A DNA stretch of 54,777 bases, from positions 1-54,777 of the IMG/VR virus record IMGVR_UViG_3300031972_003254; one strand, 5' to 3'. This document shows positions 15,379 to 46,600 of this stretch, piece after piece. The DNA comes from a virus. Lineage: Duplodnaviria > Caudoviricetes. How positions within the stretch are numbered: position 1 is the stretch's first letter; each line of letters begins with the position of its first letter. The notes under the pieces were generated by a model. The model saw only the letters and a list, made by a program, of their open reading frames with translations. It did not search any database and was not told the DNA's origin. The translations under genes were made by a program, and so were the position numbers.

Positions 15379-16200
15379 ATGCTCGGCCTGCCCGATCTTG
15401 TCGGCCAGCTTCTCCCCCTGGCCGATGCCATGGGGCTCGAACTCACTCCCGAGAACGTCGACGAGTTCGTGGCAGCGCTCGACGACGAGCTTGTCGAAGC
15501 GCTGCTGGACCCCATCCTCGCCGAGGAAGAGCGGGCGCGCTACAGCCGGTTCGCAGACCTCTTCCCCGACCATGGCCCGCTGCGGCGCGAGCTGTATGCC
15601 CGCCACCTCGAGTTCTTCGCTGCCGGCAAGGACTTTCGCGAGCGATGCTTCCTGGCCGCCAACCGCGTCGGCAAGACGGTGGCAGGCGGCTACGAGGTCA
15701 CGGCCCACCTTACCGGCCACTACCCGCATTGGTGGGAGGGCTTCCGCTTCCGCCGCCCCATTCGCGGCTGGGCGGCTGGCGACACCAACGAGACGACCCG
15801 CGACATCATCCAACTCGAACTGCTCGGCCAAGTCGTCAGCGGCGATGATGGCCGCAAGGCGCTCGACGGTTCCGGGCTGATTCCCCGACAATGCATCGGC
15901 CAGCCCAAGTGGAAGCAGGGCGTGCAGGACCTCGTCGACTATGTGCCGATCCTGCACGTCACCGGCGGCTGGTCTGTCATCGCGTTCAAGTCGTTCGATC
16001 AGGGACGGCGCGCGTTCCAGGGCACCGCGAAGGAGCTTATCTGGCTCGACGAGGAATGCCCCGAGGACGTCTACAACGAGTGCCTGATCCGCACCGCCAC
16101 GACGCGCGGACGGGTGCTCACGACGTTCACCCCGCTTTCCGGCCTGACGCCGCAGGTGCTGCAGTTCCTGCCCAAGGAGATGCGGCCCGAAGGCGTCTGA
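15379..16200 (+). CDS. terL: Terminase large subunit, N-terminal ATPase cistron
   Basis: Walker A AANRVGKT, Walker B IWLDEE, coupling motif TFT; ends TGA TAG. Confidence 0.9.
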   Translation: MLGLPDLVGQLLPLADAMGLELTPENVDEFVAALDDELVEALLDPILAEEERARYSRFADLFPDHGPLRRELYARHLEFFAAGKDFRERCFLAANRVGKTVAGGYEVTAHLTGHYPHWWEGFRFRRPIRGWAAGDTNETTRDIIQLELLGQVVSGDDGRKALDGSGLIPRQCIGQPKWKQGVQDLVDYVPILHVTGGWSVIAFKSFDQGRRAFQGTAKELIWLDEECPEDVYNECLIRTATTRGRVLTTFTPLSGLTPQVLQFLPKEMRPEGV

Positions 16201-16242: not shown

Positions 16243-16268
16243 ACCGGTAGCAGGTGGGATTGCAGGGC

Positions 16269-17012
16269 GTGCCGCAGATCAACTCGTCGAAATACATGGT
16301 GCAGGCGGGCTGGGATGACGTCCCGCACATCGACGACACCACGAAGCGCGAGTTGCTGGAAAACACCCCTGTCCACCTTCGCGACGCACGCTCCAAAGGG
16401 ACGCCAAGTTTGGGCGCGGGTGCGATCTACCCCATCGAGCAGAGCGAGATCATCGTCGATCCCTTCGCCATCCCGGCCTACTTCGCCAAGGGCTACGGCA
16501 TGGACGTGGGCTGGAACCGCACCGCCGCCGCGTTCGGTGCCTGGGACCGCGACAACGACGTGCTCTACATCTACGCCGAGCACTACCGGGGGCAGGCCGA
16601 ACCCTCGATCCATGCCGACGCGATCAGGGCGCGGGGCGACTGGCTCATCGGAGCCATCGACCCGGCATCGCGAGGGCGCGCACAGAAGGATGGCGAACAA
16701 CTTCTCGGTATCTACCGCGAACTCGGGCTGAACCTGCAGCTCGCGAACAACGCGGTCGAGGCGGGCATCCTCGAAGTCTGGCAGCGCTTCTCTTCCGGCC
16801 GCCTCAAGATATTCCGGTCCTGCCAGAACGTCCTCAACGAGCACCGCCTGTACCGGCGCGACGAGAAAGGCCGGATAGTCAAGGAGTTCGACCACCTCAT
16901 GGACGCCATCCGCTACCTCGTCCTCGCCATGGCCAACATCATGCGCACCAAGCCCGTGATCGCCCGGCCAGAGAACGCCTTCACCGCCGCCGACCGCCTC
17001 GCAGGATACTGA
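16269..17012 (+). CDS. terL: Terminase large subunit, C-terminal (lid plus RNase H-like nuclease) cistron; start GTG 16269 or 16254
   Basis: AGWDDVPHI...ARSKGTPSLGAGAIYP; GMDVGW; IDPAS; DHLMDAIRY. Confidence 0.88.
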   Translation: MPQINSSKYMVQAGWDDVPHIDDTTKRELLENTPVHLRDARSKGTPSLGAGAIYPIEQSEIIVDPFAIPAYFAKGYGMDVGWNRTAAAFGAWDRDNDVLYIYAEHYRGQAEPSIHADAIRARGDWLIGAIDPASRGRAQKDGEQLLGIYRELGLNLQLANNAVEAGILEVWQRFSSGRLKIFRSCQNVLNEHRLYRRDEKGRIVKEFDHLMDAIRYLVLAMANIMRTKPVIARPENAFTAADRLAGY

Positions 17013-34633: not shown

Positions 34634-37600
34634 ATGGAACGTGACCTTTTCGCGGAGATAGAATCTGGCCGCGATCAGCAGCCCGCGCAACGGGACCTGT
34701 TCGCCGAACTGGACGCGAAGCCCGCTCCGCAGAAGGCCGCTCCCCGGCAGACGGCGCCCGAACCGCAGCAGCCCTCGCGCGGTCTCGGTGCGTGGATCAG
34801 CGACACATGGCAGAGCGCCAGCGATGCCATGCAGCCGCTTCGGGAAGCCGTTGGCTATGATCCCGAGGCTGCGCGGCTCGAACAGGCGCGAGCGGCAGAC
34901 CGCATCCGCCAGAGGCAGGCCGCGGACCTCGCCGAGCAGAGCGGTCCGCTCGACCGTATCGGCGATTTCTTCACGCGCGGCGAAGTGGCGATGGACGCTG
35001 GAATGCAGCGCCTTGCCAGCGCGATTGAGACGGACCCGGTGCGGCGTCAAGACGCTATCGATGCAGCCCGCGCAGGCGAAGTCATCGCTCGCACACCCAT
35101 CCAAGGCGAAACCACTTGGGAGGATGTGAAGGGCAATTGGTGGAACGCCCCGAAGTTCGTGCTCGAACAGGGCGTCGCCAGCCTTCCGCAGATGGCTCTC
35201 TCCGCGATGGGGCCGGGCGTGCTCGTCAACTTCGGCAGCAACACCGGCCAGATTGCACAGAGCCGTGCCGAAGCCGACGGGCGCAAGGATGCGACCGGGC
35301 GCGATGCGGCATTTGCCGCGCCGTTCTCCGCAGCGTCTACCGCGCTCGATGTCGTCGGCCTCGGCTCCGTCATGGGCAACGCCGGTAAGACGGCAGCAGG
35401 TCGCATCGCAGTGGCGGCAGGCACCGAAGGTGTGACCGAAACGGCGCAGGGTGCAATCGAATATACCGGCGGCGCGTTCGGCACCCAGCAGGGCATGAAT
35501 GGCCGCGACCTGTTCGAGAACATGCTGCAGAGCGGACTCGTGGGCGCGGGCGTGGGCGGTGGGCTGCGCACCGGCATAGAGACCGGCGCTTCGGCTCCAG
35601 CGGCGGCGATCAGGGGCGCTCGTACCTTCGCTGGCGCGCTTCGCCGCGATCCCGGCCCCGGCCTTCGCGAACAGTCGGAAGCTGCGGCAGCATCCACGAT
35701 CACGCCCGAGGACGAAGCCAGCCCTCTCGACACTGCTGACATCGTAGCGGGCCGCGCCGAACTGATCCGTGCCGATGCGGGCAAGGCTGCCGACGAGGCC
35801 CTCGCGGGCGGAAACATGCCTGCCGTCGGCAAGCGCGTCGTCGTGACCATGCCGAACGGCGCGACATCGACGGGCGTGATGTCCGACGCCTTCACCAACG
35901 AGGACGGCAGCGGTGTCGTCATCGACCTCGATGGCGGCGGCAAGCTGCGCGAATACACCGACACCCTCGCCGACGCCGGGGTGACGATTTCCGAACTGTC
36001 TCCCACCGCCGAAGCCGACGCGATCGACGCACAGCTTGCCGCGCGGGCACAGGATGCTCTGGCCCCCTCCGAGGGTCTTCCCCTTCCCGCCGTGGATGCG
36101 GGCCAGCAGCAAGGCGCGGCACCCTCACGGACAGAGGGTGCCGCGCCGACCACCGGCACGCCGCTTCACTTCGGTATCGTCACGCGCCTGCAGGAACGCG
36201 GTCTGTCCGAAGCGGCCGCGCGCGGTGTGGCTGCCGGGATCCACGCTGAAAGCCGCAGCGATGCGCGCGCGGTCAACCCGACGAGCGGCGCGATGGGTGT
36301 CGGCCAGTGGCTCGGCTCCCGCAAGAAGGAACTCGTCAAGCGCTACGGTGCGAACCCGACGCTCGACCAGCAGCTCGATTTCCTCGTGTGGGAACTGAAC
36401 GGCGGCGACCACGGCGGCAAGGCGGTGCTCGCCGGGCGCGACGAGAACGCCGTGCTCGAGGCCTACATTACCAAGTTCATGCGCCCCGCGAAGGGTGCGG
36501 AGACGGATGGGGACCTGGCACGCGGACGTGCGGCCCTCGGCAGCCCGCTTGTCGCTGGCAGTGCTCCCGCAGTCATCGATGCCGCCGAAGGCATCGCCCT
36601 TCCCGAACGCGAGGCGGTGGACTTCGGTGCAGTTGCGAAGATTGAAGGCGCGCCGCGCGAGGATGACGGCACCACGGAAGAAACCGCCGGGACGGACCTG
36701 CGCGGGCCGGACCTTGACGCGGAGTGGGTCCGCTTCGCGGAAACCTCGGGCACGCGGAACGTCCCACGCGCGGAGATGCCGCAGATCAAGGCCGAGCATC
36801 GCGGCGCAATGGTGCAGTTCCTGAAGGCGCGCGGGGTCACGCATCAGGAAATGATCGTGCCCGCCAGCACGCTCAAGCCGACACAGGCGGAATTCTCCCC
36901 CGCGAAGGTGCAGGCCGCAAAGGACTATAAGGGCGGCGACCGGGCCATCCTGATCTCCAACGACGGCTACGTCCTCGATGGACATCACCAGTGGCTTGGC
37001 GCTCGCGACGGCGGCGGCGAGGTGCGCACGATCCGGCTCGACGCACCTATCGCCGAACTGATCCCGCTGGCGCACGAATTCCCGAGTTCGACGCAGGCGC
37101 AGGAGACGGATGCTCCAGCGATAGCAGGCGCGGACACCGAAGCCGCCGCGAAGACGCCTGCGGACGCGAGCAGCGTGACCGAATCGGCAGTGCGCGTCGA
37201 GGAGACGCCATCGGGCAAAGGCTTGGCCGTCGTTGGTGCGAGTGAGGCCGATCTTGCCGCCATCGCCGCTGCGGCGCCCAAGGCGCGGGCGGTCAGGAGG
37301 GCGGACGGGGCGATGGTCTATTCGGCGAAGTATGCCGATGCGATCCGGGCGGCAGTGGCAGGAGAGGCAACGCGCGCGCAGCAAGAGCAGGATCCAGCCC
37401 TGACGCCTGACGAGCGCACTGCCCTGGAGCGTCTACTCGCCAGCGACCGCAAAGGCGGCGAAGGCTGGAGCAAGGACAGCGCGGCATACCAGCAGGCGAA
37501 GTCCATCATCGAGGCAGGCCGGACCCGCGATGCAGCCGATGAAAACCTGCTCGTCCGCGCACTGCGCCTTCGCGATGCTGCCGAGCGAGCGAAACCGCCA

Positions 37601-40600
37601 CAGAACGACGATGCGAACGGCCTGGCTGCCGATCAGCCGGAATCCGAAACGGTGTCGCCGAAAGTGGCCCCAAGCCTTGCAGTCAGTGACCAAGCCAGCA
37701 TCGATTTGCTGAGCCGGATGGCCGAGAACGAGGACGACGGAAAGATCACGCCGTTCGACAGCGCAACCCTTCGCGCGAAGATGTTGATCGACGGCGGTTA
37801 TGTCGTGGAAAACAAGGGCGGTAAGACGGGCGCGATGTGGATCACGTCCGAGAAGGGTCGTGCCGTTCTGGACAGAGCAGGTGTCCGGCATGCGCAGTCC
37901 CCCACTTCCACCCCCACTTCCACCCCCACCACACCTGCGCAAGGTGGGGACAAGCCCTCGTCTTACGGCATCTCCAACAAGGTGTTCACCTCCGATGCCG
38001 CCGAAAGAGCCCGCGCGCTACTGCGCGCCAAGCGCGACCAGCTCAACAGCGGGTTCGATCCGGAGATCGCGCAGGCTGGCCTGACCCTCATGGGCTACCA
38101 CATCGAGGCGGGGGCGCGGCAGTTCATCGACGCCGCACGCGCCGTGGCAACAGACCTCGGCATGACGCCGACGGACCTGCGCCGCTCCCTCCGCTCGTGG
38201 TACAATTCCGCGCGCGACTGGATGGAGGACAACGGCCACGACATTCGCGGCATGGACGACGATGCGGCGGTCAAGGTGGACCTGTCCCGGATCGAGCAGT
38301 GGGGAAGCGAACAGACGACACCGACTGCGCAAGGTGCTACGGGAGACGTCGATGCTGAACTTCCGAACGACCTATCTGAACGCGATGCGGGACCAGGCTC
38401 CCGCGATGTTCAAGGAACTTCGCCGAACGGGCGCGATGGAAGCGCATCTCAATCGCAAGATGGAAGAAGCCCGGATGATCTTCCGCGACCTGACCAAGGG
38501 CGCGAAGACGCTGCCGAGCGGGACAATCGCGGATCCGGCAATCGAGAGGGACGCGACCGAGCAAGTCTACGCGACGTTGATCGCGTTCCCGCCGCCAAGC
38601 GCGACGCCGGAAGCCGAACCGGGCCAGCCCGAGACGCCGCCCAGGCCGTAAAGGGCCGCGACTGGATCATCGAACCCGGCTCGCTGGACGAAAGCCGTCC
38701 CGCCCTGCAGAAGGCGCGCGACAATGTCGATGCCATTGCGCTGGTCAAACAGATCGAGGCCGAGGGCCGCCCGGCGACTAAGGCAGAGCAGGCTGTCATC
38801 GCCCGCTATGTTGGCTGGGGCGGCCTGAAGAACGTCTTTCCCGATACCAATGGCGCGTTCGGCAAGGGTTTCGAGCAGCTTGGGCCGCGCCTGCGCGAAC
38901 TGCTGAGCGATGCCGAATACGAGACGGCTCGGCGCTCGATCCAGTATGCGCACTACACGTCCGAAAAGGTCGTGCGGCCGATGTGGGATATTGCCCGCGA
39001 GCTCGGCTTCACCGGCGGCATGGTGTTCGAGCCGGGCATGGGCACCGGTAACTTCCGGGGCATGATGCCTGCCGATCTTGCGGCGTCGAGCCGTTATCAA
39101 GGCATCGAGTACGATCATCTGACCGCGTCGATCGCAAAACTCCTCTACCCGCAGTCCGGCGTTCGACAGGCGGACTATACCACCATGCCGGGCCTCAAAG
39201 GCGTGGCAGACCTGGTGATCGGGAATCCTCCCTTTTCCGAGACCGCGATCAGCGCCGATCCGGAGTACGCGAAGCACAAGTTCCTGCTCCACGACTTCTT
39301 TTTTGCCAAGTCGCTCGATGCGCTGAAGCCGGGCGGTTTGCTCATGTTCGTGACCTCGGCCGGCACGATGAACAAGCGCGATGCGAAGGCGCGCCAGTAT
39401 CTCGCCGACCGCGCGGACCTCGTCGGTGCGATCCGGCTTCCGGGCAACGCCTTCGAAGAAAATGCCGGCACGTCGGTAACGACCGACATCGTCATCCTGC
39501 GCAAGCGCATGCCCGGCGAGGCGGCAGCCGACCAAGGTTGGGTTGCGACTGACACCCGTACCTTGCCGACGCGCGACGGCGGCACGCATACCGGAGCCGT
39601 CAGCCAGTACTTCAACCAACACCCCGAGATGGTGCTGGGCGAGGAAAGCTTCTTCGACAAGCTGGTCGCAGGTCCGCGATACGCCGTCCGCGCGCCAAAG
39701 GGCTTCGATCTTGAAGCGGCAATCCGCACGGCAGCGGACACGCTGACAGGCGCAGTCGTCACCACAACTCCGAGCGCCGAACCCGTTGGCGCGGCGGACG
39801 TTGACCTGACGTCGACCGAGCGGAAGGACGGCTCCTACTACCTCGACGATTCCGGGCGGCTCATGCAGTACCGCGGCGGCGTCGGCGCTCCCGTTCAGTC
39901 TCAGGGCAAGGGCGTACAGGGGGGCATGTCGAAGGCAGCACAGGAGAGGGTGCGAGCCCTCGTGCCTATCAAGGAGGCGCTGCGCGAAGTCTACGCCGCC
40001 GACCTCAAGTCCGACGGCGCGGCGGGCGACGCGGCCCGTCAGAAGCTGAACGTCACCTACGATGCGTTCGTTCAGAAGTTCGGCCCGATCAACAAGACCG
40101 ACATCAGCTACCGCAAGCCGAGTCGCGTCGAGATCGAGGGGCTGCGCGCAGCCGCCCGCGAAGAGGCCCGCCTGGCCGGTGCCGAATGGGACGACGGCAG
40201 CTTCGATGTGCAGCCGATGCTCGACGACGGCCTCAGCATGGCGGAGATCGCGCGCGCCCGCGAGGAAGCACGCGACGCGGCAAAGGCGGCTGGGCGTATC
40301 TGGAACGAAGGGACTTTCGAACCTGAGGACGTTCCGGAGAAGGTCGTCGAAAAGCGCCCCAACCTCGATCCGTTCATGGACGATGAGGAAGGCTACCGTC
40401 TCGCTGCGATCGAGCACTACAACAAGGACACCGGCGAATCGGCGAAAGGCCGCGTGTTCTTCGAAAACGCCGTCAAGCTGGATGCCGCGCCAAAGATAGA
40501 TTCGGCGCAGGACGCGCTTCTCTACAGCCTCAACCGGCTGGGCCGCCCCGACATCGGCATGATTGCCGACATGGCAGGCATGTCGCGTGATGCCGTCATG

Positions 40601-43600
40601 GAAGAGCTTGGCGAACGCCTGTTCGAGGTGCCGGAGCAGCGGGGTGTGCACGAGACCGGAGAGATGTACCTATCCGGCAACGTCCGCGAGAAACTGGCGG
40701 CCGCGCGTGAGGCTGCTGAGCGCGATCCGGCCTTCGACCGCAATGTGCGCGCGCTCGAGGCGGTAATGCCAAAGCCCCTCACCCCTTCGGAGATCACGGC
40801 CAACCTCGGCATGCCGTGGATCCCGGCAGACGTCGTCCGCAGCTTCATGCTCGACAAGATGGAACTGCGCACCGCGAATGTCAGCTACCTTGGCAAGCTG
40901 GCGCAGTGGCTTGTGACCGGCGACAAGGCAAGCTCGGCAGCTACGTCCACCTGGGGCACCGATCGAATGGACGCGGTGGACCTCATGCTTGCCGCACTCA
41001 ACCGTCAGACACCGATTGTGCGCGACCGGATCAGGACGGCGGAGGGCGACAAGAGCATCGTCAACGAGGTCGCCACACAGGCTGCGCAGGACAAGATGGC
41101 CGAGATCAAGGAGGCATTCCGCTCCTGGGTCTGGAACGACGACACCCGCGCCGCCAATCTGGTCGACCTCTACAACCGCGACTACAACAGCCACGTCGCG
41201 CCCAGCTTCAACGGGTTCTACCTGACCACGCCGGGAATCGCCTCGACGTGGCAATGGCGTCCGCATCAGACGACCGTCGTTGCGCGTATCATCCAGTCTG
41301 GCAACACCTATATGGCGCACGAAGTGGGGGCCGGTAAAACCTCGGCGATGATCGGCGCGGGCATGGAAATGAAGCGCCTCGGCCTCGTCTCCAAGCCGAT
41401 GTACGTCGTACCCAACCACATGCTCGGGCAGTTCACCAAGGAGTTCTACGAGCAATATCCGCTGGCCCGCATCCGGGTGGCCGACGAGCGCCGCTTTCAT
41501 ACTTCGCGGCGCAAGGAGTTCGTGGCGCGAATGGCTGCCGACGACCTTGATGCCGTCATCATCACGCACTCGGCGTTCGGCTATATCCCGATGTCGGACG
41601 ACTTCACCGCAGGCATGGTCGAACAGCAGATCGACGACCTTGAAGACCTGTTGAAGGAACTCGGTAAAGGTCAGGACGTCCGCATCACGCGGCGCAAGGT
41701 CGAGCAGCAGAAGGAGGCGCTGGAACAGCGTCTGCGCGGGCTGACCAACAGGAAGCGCGATCAGGTTTTCACCTTCGAGGAAACCGGCGTTGATTTCCTG
41801 TTCGTGGACGAGGCGCACGAGTTCCGAAAACTCGATTTCGCCACCCGCATGGGTGACGTGAAGGGTATCGACCCGCAGGGATCGCAGAAGTCTTTCGACC
41901 TGTTCGCAAAGACCCGTTACCTTGAACAGCAGCGCCCGGGCCGGAATCTCGTCCTTGCCTCGGGCACGCCCATCACGAACACCATGGCCGAATTGTACTC
42001 GGTCAGCCGCTACCTGCAGGGCGCTGAACTGGAGAAGCGCGGCCTTGGCCACTTCGACGCCTGGGCCGGCGCTTTCGGTGACACGGTCACGGCGCTGGAG
42101 CAGGACCCCGCCGGAGGGTACAAGCCGCAGACTCGCTTCGCCAAGTTCATCAACGTGCCCGAATTGTCCGTGATGGTCCGGCAGGTGATGGACGTCGTAG
42201 GCGCTACCGAACTTCGGCAGTACGTGTCGCTCCCCAACCTGAAAGGCGGCTCCCGGCAACTCGTATCGGTGGAGATGACAGAGAACCAGGCGGCTTACAA
42301 AGGCACGCTGCAGCGGCGCATGGAGGCGATTCAGCGCCGCAGCGGCCCGCCGCAGAAGGGTGACGACATCTTGCTGTCCGTCATCGGCGACGGGCGCAAG
42401 GCTGCCATCGACTATCGCCTCATCGACTCTACCGCTCCGCGCGAGGAAGGATCGAAGTTGGAACGCATGATCCAGGAGGTTGCGCGCCGCCACAAGGAAT
42501 TCAGCCGCACGCCGTTCCATGCGCCGCTACCCGCCGGGGCGGGGTTCTCCGAGAAGGCCGAAACCTACGGCCCGGCAACGCAGATGATCTTCTCCGACTT
42601 TGGCATCAACGGCGACTTTCCGGTCCACAAATATATCCGAAGTTCACTGATCGAGCGCGGCATTCCGGCCGGGCAGATCGCCATCATCAGCGATTTCAAG
42701 ACGCACGTCGCAAAGCAGCGCCTCTTCAACGACATGAACGAGGGCAAGGTGCGCGTGCTGATCGGCTCGGTTGCCAAGATGGGAACGGGCGTCAACGCGC
42801 AGCGACGCCTGCGCGCCCTGCACAACATGGACGCGCAGTGGTACCCGGCCAACGACACTCAGCGGAACGGTCGGATCATCCGCCAGGGCAACATGAACCC
42901 CGAGATCGAAATCCTCGATTACGCGACCGAGGGCACTTACGATTCGACCATGTGGGGTCTGATGGCCAAGAAGGCCCGGTTCATCGAGGGGTTCATGCGC
43001 GGCGATCCGACCATGCGCGACATGGAGGACCTGGGCGAAGCCAGCCAGTACGAGCAGGTTTCGGCGATGACGACCAGTGACCCTCGGATCATGGAGTTGA
43101 CCGAGTGGGAGCAGGAGCTTGAGAAGATCGAACGGCGCAAGGCAGCGCACGAACGCGACCAGCAGAACATTCGTCTGGAAATCATGCAAGCGGAGGAGCG
43201 CGCGGCAAGTACGTCGGCGCGCATTCCCCTGATTGAACAGGACATTGCGGCCCGCAATCTGCCTGAAAATGACGCATTCACCGGCGTCGTTCGAGGGCGG
43301 ACCTACGACGACAAGGCTGAGTTCGGTGCAGCGCTTATGGATGCCGCCGAGGACATTACCGGACGGGCGAACGGAAAGACGCTTCGCGAAGGTGTGGGCG
43401 AATTCGGCGGGTTTAAGATTGCGGCAGAATCGCACCCCGGCATGGATGGCACTGAAGCCAGCTTCTACATCAAGCGGGCGGGCGGGCGGGAAAGCCGCGT
43501 CGACATGGGCTCCGATGCCAGAGGCCTTGTGACGCGCATCACCAATGTTTTGCGCAGGTTCGACGAGGATTTGGATTGGGCGCGTTCATCCGTCGAGGCA

Positions 43601-46600
43601 GCCGAGCGGCGCATGGCCGACTTCCGCCCCAAGCTGGGCGCGAAGTTTGATGATGGCGGCAAGGGCGCTGACTTGCGCGAGAAGATCAATGGGCTTGAAG
43701 CTGCGTTGGCTGCCGAAAGCGCAGCAGCAGAAGCCGCGAGGAAGGCAGCCCCCGGCGAAGCGCGGCAATCAATCCCCGAGGCCGACCTGCCAGTTGTTGC
43801 CGAGCTCACTGGCTCGGAGCTTGGCAAGCTGCTGCCACCCGGCCGGGCGCGCATCACGATGCTGCGCGACCGTGCAATCGCATGGTTTGCGCAGAACCTG
43901 CGCGGCAAGACGATCACGGCATCCGACGGCAAGCCGGTGGCATTCACCAAGCGCGGGCAAGCCAAATCCACCTCGCGCAAGGGTGACGAGGTCCTGCGCA
44001 TCGTGCCTGCCATTCCGGACCTGATTTCCAAGGGTGTCGTGCGACCTATGGAACAGCGCCTTCTGCCGAACGGCATCGTCAAGTCGGAGATGTTCGCCGG
44101 CATCGTCATGCTCGACGGCAAGCCGGTGCGTGCGGGTGCTATCGTGCTAACCGACAACAGCGGCAGCCGTCACTACGACCTGACCAACGAGGTGAGAAGC
44201 GCCACCGGGAACCCCGGCGAGCCGGGCGGTGCTACAGACAAGTCCAGCGTTCCGTCATTGGATGGTGAACCCGGCGGCGACTGGAACCTAATCCCGATTT
44301 CCGAGGATTTCAATGCGGCTCGCGAAGGGCTGGACGAAGCAGCCCTGGCCGAGCAGCTTCAGCAGCGCCTCGAAGGCTATGGGCTTGGGCGAAAGGTGGC
44401 GCTGCGTGTCGTAGAGACGCTGAACGGGGCGGCCGGCGACTATCGAGCGGCCCTGATCCGGATCGCGACTGACACATCGCAGGACGGGACGTTCACGCTC
44501 GACCACGAGGCGGTGCACGCCTTTCGTGACCTGGGCGTCTTCAACAACTCGGAGTGGGCCGTGCTGGCAGCGAAGGCCCGGCGCGATACCGGCCTCATGC
44601 GCTCGATTCGGCAGCGCTATCCCCGGCTGGATGCCGAAGCGCAGGTAGAGGAAGCCGTGGGCGACATGTTCGCTCGCTGGCGCCGCGGCGATTATCGCGC
44701 CGAGGGCACCGTCGCCCGCGTGTTCAAGCGGCTGGGAGAGATGATCGAGGCCATCGGCAATTGGCTGGCCGGGCGCGGCGCACGCACGTCAGAAGGCGTC
44801 ATGGAGGACATGGCAGGCGGGGATGTCGGTGTGCGCGAAGGGCGCGCTGCGTCCGCCGAGGCCGATGCTCGCCATGCCATTCCCGAACGCACGGCCATGA
44901 TCGAACTTGGCGGGAGCGACCCCACCTGGCGCAGCAAGATGAGCGATGCCTTCGACCGCTGGCGCACCGCCGTTCAGGATCGCTACCTGCCGCTCCTGAA
45001 AGTGCAGCGCGAGATCGAGCGCGCGACGGGCAAGCCGCTGCCGGTCAACCGCAATCCCTACCTCGGCGAGGAATTGATGACGGGCCGGATCGGCGCTGCG
45101 CTGGAGCAGCTTACGGACAGGCACGTTGGCCCGCTTTTCGATGCCATGCACGCGGAGAGCATCACCGCCGACGAACTGGAAACCTACCTCTACGCCCGAC
45201 ATGCACCGGAGCGGAACGAGCGCATTGCCTCGATCAATCCCGAATTCGAACAGGGCGAAGGCTCGGGCATGACCGACATCGAGGCCATGGCCGTGATGAA
45301 CCGGATCGAGCGCGAGGGACGCACCGAGGCGATGGAGCGACTCGCCGCGCGCGTGGACGCAATCCGGGAAATGACGCTGAACAAACAGGTCGAGACGGGC
45401 CTCATCAGTCAGGAGCAAGCGGACGAACTGCGCGCCACCTACGAGCACTATATCCCGCTGCGCGGCTTCGCGGAGATGGGCGAGGACGCCGATCCGGCGC
45501 TTGCCGACCGCATCAACCGTTCCGGCGGCGGCATCAACGTGCGCGGACGTGAAAGCAAGCCGGCCTATGGGCGGCGCAGCAAGGCGGACTCGCCGCTCGC
45601 CTACCTGATCCTGCAGGCCGAAAGTGCGATCGTGCGCGGCGAAACGAACCTTGTGGCGCAGAAGTTCGTGAACCTCGCAAAGGCCAACCCCGACGACGAG
45701 TTCTGGAGCGTCAACAAGGTGTCGCACCGCCAGCGGGTCAACGAGGAGACCGGGCTGGTCGAGCGTTATCTGACCCGCAACCTGCTGGCGGCGGACGCCG
45801 ACTGGACGGTGAGCGCCAAGTTCGGCGGCGTGGAGCGGCGCGTCACGATGAACCGGGCGAACCCTGCTGCCCGCCGCCTCGCCGACGCCATGCGCAACCT
45901 GACGCAGCAGCAACTCGATTGGGTGACGCTGCACCTTGGAAAGGTGAACCGGTTCCTTTCGGCGGTGAATACGAGCTACAACCCCGAGTTCGTCATCACC
46001 AATGCCTTCCGCGACCTGCAGACCGCAGCGTTCAACCTGAGCGGCGAGGAGGTCGAGGGCCTGACGCGCGGGGTTCTCAAAGACTATCGCGCGGCGCTGG
46101 TCGCATCGACCAAGGGCGCGTTCGGGCGCGGCGAGGGTGAGTGGGGCCGCTGGTACGAGGAGTTCGCGAGCGAAGGCGGGCGCGTCTACTTCAATCGCGT
46201 CGAGAACGTGGCCGAGATCAAGAAGCGGATCGAGAAAACCATCGCACTCGCATCGGTCAAGGCAGGCGACGGCTCCGCCCGTCTGCGTGCGAAAAGGGTC
46301 TTCATGGCGGTTCGCGACGGCATCGAAGGAGTAAACTCCGGCATCGAGAATGCCGTGCGCCTTTCCACATACAAGAACGCGCGCGAGCGCGGCCTTTCCC
46401 GGGAACGGGCGGCCAGCCTGGCAAAGAACGTCACCGTCAACTTCAACCGCCGGGGGACGATGGGGCCGGCAATCAACGCGGCCTACCTGTTCTTCAATGC
46501 ATCGGTGCAGGGCACCGCCCGGATCGCCATGGCGCTGCGGTCGAAGCGCGTGCGCAAGATGATGGCCGGCGTGATGATCGCGGGTGCCGTGACCGAAATG

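Follow-up and report, generated by a model that had tools for sequence, protein, structure and literature searches.

Does a short interval inside a very large phage gene encode one protein or two? The interval lies in the IMG/VR virus record IMGVR_UViG_3300031972_003254 (Duplodnaviria; Caudoviricetes), whose whole stretch of 54,777 nt was analysed and is called here the window. The window contains a giant DarB-like polyvalent gene, and at 38352-38651 a second open reading frame (ORF) opens in its +1 frame. A preliminary description of the window had proposed that a hidden TnpV-like gene is overprinted there inside the giant gene. Comparison with related sequences indicates that this interval is likely to be dual-coding and to hold a nested gene with its own start. 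As to which of the two frames is the older one, we come to the opposite view.

The nested reading frame and selection on the overlap

As listed in Table 1, the nested ORF runs from an ATG to a TAA and is preceded at the proper distance by a Shine-Dalgarno (SD)-like motif, as the preliminary description had read it (GGAG-N6-ATG followed by 99 codons). The G+C content of third codon positions (GC3) at about 38300-38600 is 0.44-0.58 in the frame of the giant gene (the main frame) against 0.73-0.86 in the +1 frame, so the G/C-ending codons ascribed to the nested frame were recovered by a per-frame calculation. Elsewhere the main frame has a GC3 of 0.64-0.90. In a scan of the whole 13-kb ORF the overlap was the sole strong frame switch, with 10 consecutive scanning windows and a main-frame GC3 minimum of 0.42; at six other flagged spots of the giant ORF the main-frame GC3 stays at 0.62 or higher.

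Read in the main frame, the overlap gives a linker of R (16%), D (16%), A (13%), G (12%) and S (10%), with 8% hydrophobic residues and a grand average of hydropathy of -1.52, in keeping with the R/D/G-rich low complexity described earlier for this span. The linker is probably disordered and joins the N-terminal part of the giant protein to its methylase-helicase part. Read in the +1 frame, the overlap gives a 99-amino-acid (aa) peptide for which AlphaFold2, with a 40-sequence alignment, predicted four helices at a mean confidence (pLDDT) of 82. This model had no Foldseek neighbour at E<=1e-3 in PDB or BFVD. The predicted isoelectric point of the small protein is 4.8-8.0, that is, acidic to neutral.

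Pattern scans with a 9-sequence alignment gave 6 loci in viral contigs, 4 in species-representative genomes and 9 in metagenomes. All six viral-contig loci were nested, and none of the four genome loci was. Among the metagenome loci, L014, L015 and L019 were nested, L013 was a duplicate of L006, L018 and L020 were fused to another domain and L021 was a truncated fragment; in L016 and L017, which are contigs of ~1.1 kb, the third frame has no stop within the small ORF and closes nearby. Altogether, a +1 ORF nested inside a continuous large ORF, with both frames open, was found in 10/10 distinct contigs (the window, L003, L004, L005, L006, L007, L008, L014, L015 and L019). Stops in the nested frame of close homologues, which the preliminary description had named as evidence against the gene, were thus not found.

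A methylase homologue was detected by tblastn (giant-protein residues 900-1800) at exactly the nested loci, each of which gave a single one-frame alignment spanning the overlap. No methylase homologue was found at the non-nested loci L009-L012, L018 and L020. The identity of the small protein to that of the window goes down to 41-48% among the nested loci. The sequence 5' of the overlap is unrelated in L014, L015 and L019, and the methylase is always located 3'. Including the cultured phages described below, the same arrangement was present in 22 sequences (10 contigs and 12 cultured phages).

Codon alignments were derived from the small-protein alignment and analysed by the Nei-Gojobori method for the 10 loci (45 pairs). 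In the overlap, the ratio of nonsynonymous to synonymous divergence (dN/dS) was 0.16-1.05 in the small frame and 1.04-2.57 in the main frame. It was lower in the small frame in 45/45 pairs, which upholds the proposal of a genuine nested coding frame, and amino-acid identity was greater in the small frame than in the main frame in every pair as well. Substitutions in the overlap cluster at third positions of the small frame. The ratio of the proportions of nonsynonymous and synonymous differences (pN/pS) was calculated for the two conserved flanks listed in Table 1. It was lower in the main frame than in the +1 frame in 21/21 pairs upstream (145 codons) and in 21/21 pairs downstream (460 codons; median 0.46 vs 1.23). 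Synonymous divergence was lower in the small frame than in the adjoining methylase region for 20/21 pairs (median 0.56 vs 0.61), and this slight reduction fits a mild extra constraint.

Small-gene codons were also resampled synonymously with the codon usage of each locus. The probability of a stop-free main frame was 0.009-0.196 per locus, with 1.5-4.1 stops expected (1.97 in the window), and no stop was observed in 10/10 loci. The product of these probabilities is 6e-14, a value inflated by the common descent of the loci. Purifying selection acts on the small frame, and the main frame evolves freely in the overlap but avoids stops.

All ten nested loci have an ATG or GTG at the N-terminus of the small-protein family and a purine-rich SD-like motif 4-8 nt upstream of it. 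The SD duplex of the window has an energy of -7.4 kcal/mol; among the 377 further ATG/GTG codons inside the giant ORF, just 2.9% match this value. Across the ten loci, duplex energies with a generic anti-SD sequence were -5.2 to -11.8 kcal/mol, in the top 0-13.3% of internal ATG/GTG codons, and the mean for the other such codons of the same ORFs was -2.4 to -3.3 kcal/mol. The Fisher combined p for SD strength was 1e-12 under the assumption that the loci are independent. In L019 a small-frame TAA stands immediately before the GTG, and in L006 and L005 the frame opens 10 and 11 codons upstream of the start. A promoter and terminator scan of 37600-38900 yielded 0 sites and no sigma-70-like promoter. 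The RNA around the nested start was no more structured than shuffled sequences (z +1.28), a weakly informative result. We infer from these sequence features that internal initiation on the giant late mRNA is the simplest reading, because the start and its SD are conserved, small-frame stops lie upstream, there is no promoter or terminator and the start is unstructured.

The methylase region matches 88 phage records, all at <60% identity (tblastn). The best matches are genes of Ralstonia Gervaisevirus and Burkholderia Lessievirus annotated as 'DarB-like antirestriction'. Fourteen of the 88 records were sampled around the methylase match and searched in six frames with the window-family profile. 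The best match lay in the +1 frame 5' of the methylase region in most of the 14, with E-values of 1.8e-4 to 0.94 among 1,057 frame pieces. A comparable +1-frame ORF with an ATG and 90-117 codons, located 400-620 nt before the tblastn methylase match, was present in 12/14 (Gervaise, AhaGv, DC1, Bcep22, PEp14, POI1126, Itty13, Atu_ph08, VvAW1, LASTA, USP_18 and Pseudomonas 8P). An SD-like motif precedes 13 cultured-phage ORFs, with pairing energies of -5.0 to -12.4 kcal/mol in the twelve nested ones, and the main frame was stop-free across all 13 cultured-phage ORFs examined, including that of VvAW1 (50% GC).

In profile-profile comparison the window family matched the 'MNLNNW' group of phage ORFs at E 5.8e-5 and the Bcep22/Gervaise group at 2.5e-4, and the latter two groups matched each other at 1.3e-3. 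In the MNLNNW group the small frame had lower pN/pS and higher identity in 21/21 pairs. In the Bcep22/Gervaise group just the two within-genus pairs are informative, and they likewise favour the small frame (0.31 vs 1.36 and 0.29 vs 0.86).

None of the 14 sampled records lists a separate coding sequence (CDS) for the small ORF; the expectation that standard annotation would miss the gene was correct. Exact look-ups in a 15-billion-protein collection found 3/8 nested products, on contigs of 560 to 13,590 nt, and where the deposited proteins are named they are called only 'hypothetical protein'.

Several records deserve separate mention. In Sinorhizobium phage PBC5 (L028; NC_003324.1 22715-27082, reverse complement) the annotation divides the giant gene into two, gp22 and gp21, with ~1.6 kb unannotated between them. 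Its small ORF continues the frame of the upstream domain, and gp22 ends in the TnpV-like small protein. Just 5' of the small ORF, PBC5 and Agrobacterium phage Atu_ph08 differ by a 1-nt indel, which is either a genuine variant or an old sequencing error. In the record of Pseudomonas phage Itty13 (L026; MW460249.1) the CDSs were deposited on the strand opposite to the tblastn DarB-like frame, and the giant gene seems to be annotated on the wrong strand. The nested product of Ochrobactrum phage POI1126 has exact copies among the hypothetical proteins deposited from 600- and 1,133-nt contigs labelled Vibrio navarrensis and Brucella abortus, which suggests prophage fragments or contamination in those assemblies.

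The small-protein family and the older frame

A phmmer search of 1.84 billion representative proteins with the 99-aa peptide gave 101 homologues at E<=1e-3, including 15 at E<=1e-10. An absence of homologues of the peptide, another observation that the preliminary description had said would tell against the gene, is therefore not the case. The homologues are mostly stand-alone proteins of 80-140 aa, and 78/101 are no longer than 140 aa. Most of them align their own residue 1-8 to residue 1-4 of the query, and the family alignment (A2) begins at the nested Met; since the first residues of the relatives align to the first of the query, the N-terminus of the family coincides with the ATG at 38352. 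A single-peptide locus search of viral contigs confirmed none. A tblastn search of plasmids and cultured phages with the 99-aa peptide gave zero matches, and the cultured-phage ORFs were reached by profiles only.

Longer relatives show the small domain in other company. In P0024 it is fused in frame behind a domain homologous to residues ~1107-1235 of the giant protein (YHIEAGAR..WYNSARD), and in P0011 it precedes a YHIEAGAR-type domain. P0006, P0031 and P0052 combine the small module with a different C-terminal domain that matched no Pfam family. At L010 (4001-4597), L018 (2857-3720) and L020 (2384-3316), which are mobile-element contexts outside phages, the module was seen fused to this uncharacterised C-terminal domain of ~150 aa (..IYGDD..WDEYC..). 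A free-standing member, L009 (2616-4246, on a contig of a Micropepsales metagenome-assembled genome), follows a tyrosine integrase (Arm-DNA-bind_3, Phage_int_M, Phage_integrase) at a distance of 57 nt; this placement resembles that of tnpV adjoining a recombinase. L010 and L012 adjoin transposases, and L020 is near a resolvase.

The name TnpV-like applies to the family in part. Twelve of 40 aligned members matched Pfam TnpV (PF14198) at E<=0.01 (best 1.8e-5), 4/10 cultured-phage nested ORFs matched it at sub-threshold scores (14-21 bits, E 4e-4 to 0.045), and no tested member reached the 27-bit gathering score. The 99-aa peptide of the window had no PF14198 match at E<=0.01; its 129-aa open frame scored 12.3 bits (E 0.18), below the gathering score of 27. 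Only 1/40 members matched PHROGs (E 0.0012, an unnamed family), and the ESM Atlas gave just unnamed clusters of ~100 aa, one with 11% TnpV. From these sub-threshold matches in relatives the nested gene product may be called distantly TnpV-like.

TnpV of Tn4451/Tn4453 is likewise a small helical mobile-element protein of ~100 aa, the sub-threshold PF14198 matches cover the same core, and the free-standing relatives adjoin recombinases. The nested gene differs in lying inside a DarB-like gene and not beside a large serine recombinase (TnpX) of a mobilisable transposon; the only recombinase of the window is the integrase (Table 1). In the available text of PMC3158075, TnpV itself is only 'postulated' to act in excision.

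The distribution of homologues bears on the order in which the frames arose. The nested gene has the properties of an embedded out-of-frame gene, being a complete same-strand ORF in another frame with its own conserved ribosome-binding site and start. A gene overprinted de novo would have no homologues outside the overlap, but this one has 101, many of them free-standing or otherwise fused. The linker frame, unlike the small frame, had no homologues outside the overlap. Our reading of the sequences is that the small gene is the older frame, since its relatives are free-standing or differently fused in other mobile elements, and that the linker of the giant gene is the overprint. The polarity in 'overprinted inside' is thereby reversed. 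The further idea that the small gene entered with the methylase-helicase module gained no support. Three plasmid methylase-helicase genes begin with the methylase region and lack the nested ORF, the three profiles giving no match at E<=1, and the in-frame fusions (P0024, P0011 and PBC5 gp22) tie the small protein to the upstream domain instead.

We propose that the small gene would be translated from its own SD and ATG within the mRNA of the giant gene, and that ribosomes on the 4,321-aa DarB-like frame would read across the same bases and yield the R/D/G-rich linker. The linker would connect the N-terminal part (lysozyme and YHIEAGAR domain) to the methylase-helicase part. A plausible origin is an ancestral operon of an upstream gene, the small gene and a methylase-helicase gene, in which the first and the last merged into a single frame running across the small gene. 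Nesting would ensure that the small protein is expressed and inherited together with the giant protein.

Alternative explanations and a possible role

Several results weigh against the dual-coding interpretation or narrow it. The loci share descent, hence the combined p-values exaggerate their independence. The SD is only in the top 9-19% in L004, L005, POI1126, Itty13, Atu_ph08, PBC5, USP_18 and 8P. The window peptide is far under the TnpV cut-off, and 'TnpV-like' depends on sub-threshold matches in relatives. In the Bcep22/Gervaise group the four cross-genus pairs have ratios of ~1.0 in both frames, so that the small frame is lower in 2/6 pairs overall; saturation is probably the reason for the absent difference. 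The ORF of Pseudomonas 8P matches none of the three profiles and is a putative homologue only. The arrangement is absent from a Streptococcus phage locus as well as from the 3 plasmid methylase-helicase genes. Lastly, PBC5 and P0024 have the small protein in one frame with the upstream domain, and it may therefore be made in some phages as a C-terminal domain instead of a free protein.

The in-frame cases also raise the possibility that the small frame is reached by +1 ribosomal frameshifting, which would give a truncated N-terminal part with a TnpV-like C-terminal domain alongside the full-length protein. In PBC5 and P0024 a YHIEKGAR domain and the small protein form one frame that ends at the stop of the small gene, PBC5 and Atu_ph08 differ by that 1-nt indel just upstream, and the small frame of the window extends, free of stops, for 62 codons 5' of the ATG. 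This explanation is nevertheless improbable. Small-frame stops occur 0-11 codons before the start in L019 (0), L006 (10) and L005 (11) and close before it in PEp14 (2), LASTA (2) and VvAW1 (5), all loci keep the start codon with a correctly spaced SD, and the free-standing relatives begin at the same residue. A conserved slippery motif was not noticed, though no formal slippery-site search was made. That the giant ORF is untranslated across the overlap, leaving three genes in practice with a main frame open by chance in GC-rich DNA, is very unlikely. High GC does lengthen off-frames, many plus-strand ORFs of >100 aa overlap the giant gene, chance openness at a single locus reaches 0.196 and PBC5 is annotated as two genes; but the main frame is open in 10/10 contigs, each with 1.5-4.1 stops expected, and in all 13 cultured-phage ORFs, the parts on either side of the overlap lie in a common frame everywhere except PBC5, and there is no stop to end the upstream part.

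We give hardly any credence to the view that there is no small gene at all and that the open frame arose by chance, as the relic of a compensated double frameshift or from an assembly error in a single genome. Neither Pfam nor PHROGs gave a significant match to the window peptide and the tblastn searches of plasmids and cultured phages were empty, but the 101 homologues, the conserved start and stop, the substitutions at small-frame third positions and the 22 independent sequences oppose it. A chance ORF, a sequencing error and a compensated frameshift are each refuted by conservation of the small frame across independent assemblies. A rival of another kind concerns function: the small protein could be an Xis-like recombination directionality factor for the phage integrase, a function once proposed for TnpV, its place in the DarB-like gene being incidental. 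Free-standing relatives do lie beside a tyrosine integrase (L009) and near a resolvase or transposases (L020, L010 and L012), and the window has an integrase gene. We consider this role unlikely, as the gene belongs to the late or virion module, is 15 kb away from the integrase and keeps its place 5' of the methylase region across several phage genera, the predicted isoelectric point is not basic and the four-helix bundle matches no solved DNA-binding protein.

Under the dual-coding interpretation, a role connected with the giant protein can be suggested. Phages of several genera have the nested gene 5' of the methylase region, and in the clade of the window the two are immediately adjacent. 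One speculative possibility, to which we attach limited weight, is that the small protein serves the giant protein as an accessory in folding, capsid loading or control. The DarB protein of phage P1, with its accessories DarA, Hdf, DdrA, DdrB and Ulx, has the same pair of methylase and SNF2 helicase, and the homologues of the giant protein in Bcep22-like phages are virion proteins too; the protein studied here is twice the size of P1 DarB and has the additional lysozyme, LPD3 and LPD38 domains. According to the available text of PMC9144972, P1 DarB depends on small accessory proteins and no such proteins are known from Lessieviruses, which leaves room for the nested protein in that role as a hypothesis. 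A more specific form of this idea, which we hold to be doubtful, makes the nested TnpV-like protein the obligatory missing accessory factor of the giant ejected antirestriction proteins in Bcep22-like and related phages. It would be the counterpart of P1 DarA/Hdf/Ddr and would load the >4,000-aa protein into capsids or keep it inactive, and dual coding would have arisen as two large genes fused across the small gene, locking partner and client together.

The giant gene and known nested genes

Table 1. Positions of the features in the window (nt) and in the giant protein (aa).
Feature	Position	Strand	Remark
Nested gene	38352..38651	+	+1 frame of 34634..47599; 99 codons; ATG 38352, TAA 38649-38651
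SD-like GGGAG	38341..38345	+	6-nt spacer to nested ATG
Main-frame reading of the overlap	38351..38650	+	100-codon linker, R/D/G/A/S-rich
Conserved main-frame domain directly 5' of the overlap	37916..38350	+	Alignment A6, 7 loci; motif ..YHIEAGAR..LRSWYNSARD..
Start of conserved methylase region, main frame	38651..40030	+	Alignment A7, 73% mean column identity
Giant DarB-like polyvalent gene	34634..47599	+	Host of the overlap; 12,966-nt ORF, 4,321 aa
Phage_lysozyme2	aa 516-622		Pfam, giant protein
N6_Mtase/Eco57I	aa 1441-1627		Pfam, giant protein
SNF2/DEAD/ResIII	aa 2207-2400		Pfam, giant protein
Helicase_C	aa 2690-2752		Pfam, giant protein
LPD3	aa 3074-3181		Pfam, giant protein
LPD38	aa 4005-4199		Pfam, giant protein
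Large terminase, first ORF	15379..16200		273 aa, Terminase_6N ATPase part
Large terminase, second ORF	16254..17012		252 aa
Integrase	53506..54777

The giant gene encodes an N6-adenine methylase followed by a SNF2/DEAD helicase in a single polypeptide (Pfam), the arrangement expected of a DarB-like protein; several of its methylase and helicase matches are individually below the Pfam cut-offs. The window also codes for a capsid protein, terminase, RecT, tail fibre and integrase. From these genes and the domains of the giant gene, the source is a temperate phage with a DarB-like polyvalent gene. A homologue of the giant protein, JC1 gp69, was detected in virions by mass spectrometry according to the available text of PMC9144972, and by analogy the giant protein may be packaged in virions and protect against restriction.

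Methylase similarity had been said to begin right after the nested TAA. Main-frame similarity to relatives does restart at the codon overlapping the TAA (KGRDW..), and the Pfam methylase begins ~100 residues further on. On the other side of the overlap, the YHIEAGAR domain (giant-protein residues ~1095-1239) is helical, belongs to no Pfam family and recurs in PBC5, Atu_ph08, P0011 and P0024. This region may be an undescribed polyvalent-protein domain.

Genes read in two frames of one DNA stretch are familiar from phages, as in the overprinted genes B, K and E of phiX174. In such pairs and in the giant gene alike, constraint falls on one frame, and the other shows a biased composition and evolves fast. 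The difference is that in phiX174 the nested gene is new, whereas here the nested gene would be ancestral and the linker of the host novel. The closer likeness is to Rz1 within Rz, where a larger phage gene encloses, in its +1 frame, the whole of a small gene that has its own start. Both the Rz1 and Rz products are translated, as is predicted here for the two frames of the overlap. The host here is also >4,000 aa, the embedded gene has free-standing homologues and it is the host linker that would be the overprint. Bcep22-like phages themselves have embedded Rz1 genes, as the available text of PMC9144972 reports.

The literature covered, which did not include the original Bcep22 paper, yielded no account of any gene nested within a DarB-like or polyvalent one. 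The available portions of PMC9144972, PMC10269572 and PMC5512222 contain no mention of the nested gene. The words TnpV, overlapping and frameshift are absent from the available portion of the polyvalent-protein survey, and in those of the JC1 and CSP3 papers embedding is mentioned solely for Rz1 in Rz. Embedded out-of-frame phage genes are already known; the present one is a new case, widely conserved and of unusual polarity.

The DarB-like gene takes up about one fifth of the genome in widespread temperate podophages (Bcep22, DC1, JC1, Gervaise, PEp14 and LASTA), several of which have been studied for phage therapy. Proteomic searches limited to annotated proteins could not have detected the nested product, and the nested gene is a candidate for an accessory function of giant virion proteins. 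It would also offer a clean and testable case in which a giant gene, formed by fusion, reads through an older small gene in another frame. What looks like a low-complexity 'linker' of a polyvalent protein is thus not necessarily a simple spacer.

Elsewhere in the window, the large terminase consists of two adjacent ORFs separated by a gap of ~54 nt (Table 1). The second of these resembles the C-terminal part of terminase large-subunit PHROGs, and the pair may reflect the splitting of a gene, a frameshift or an error of assembly.

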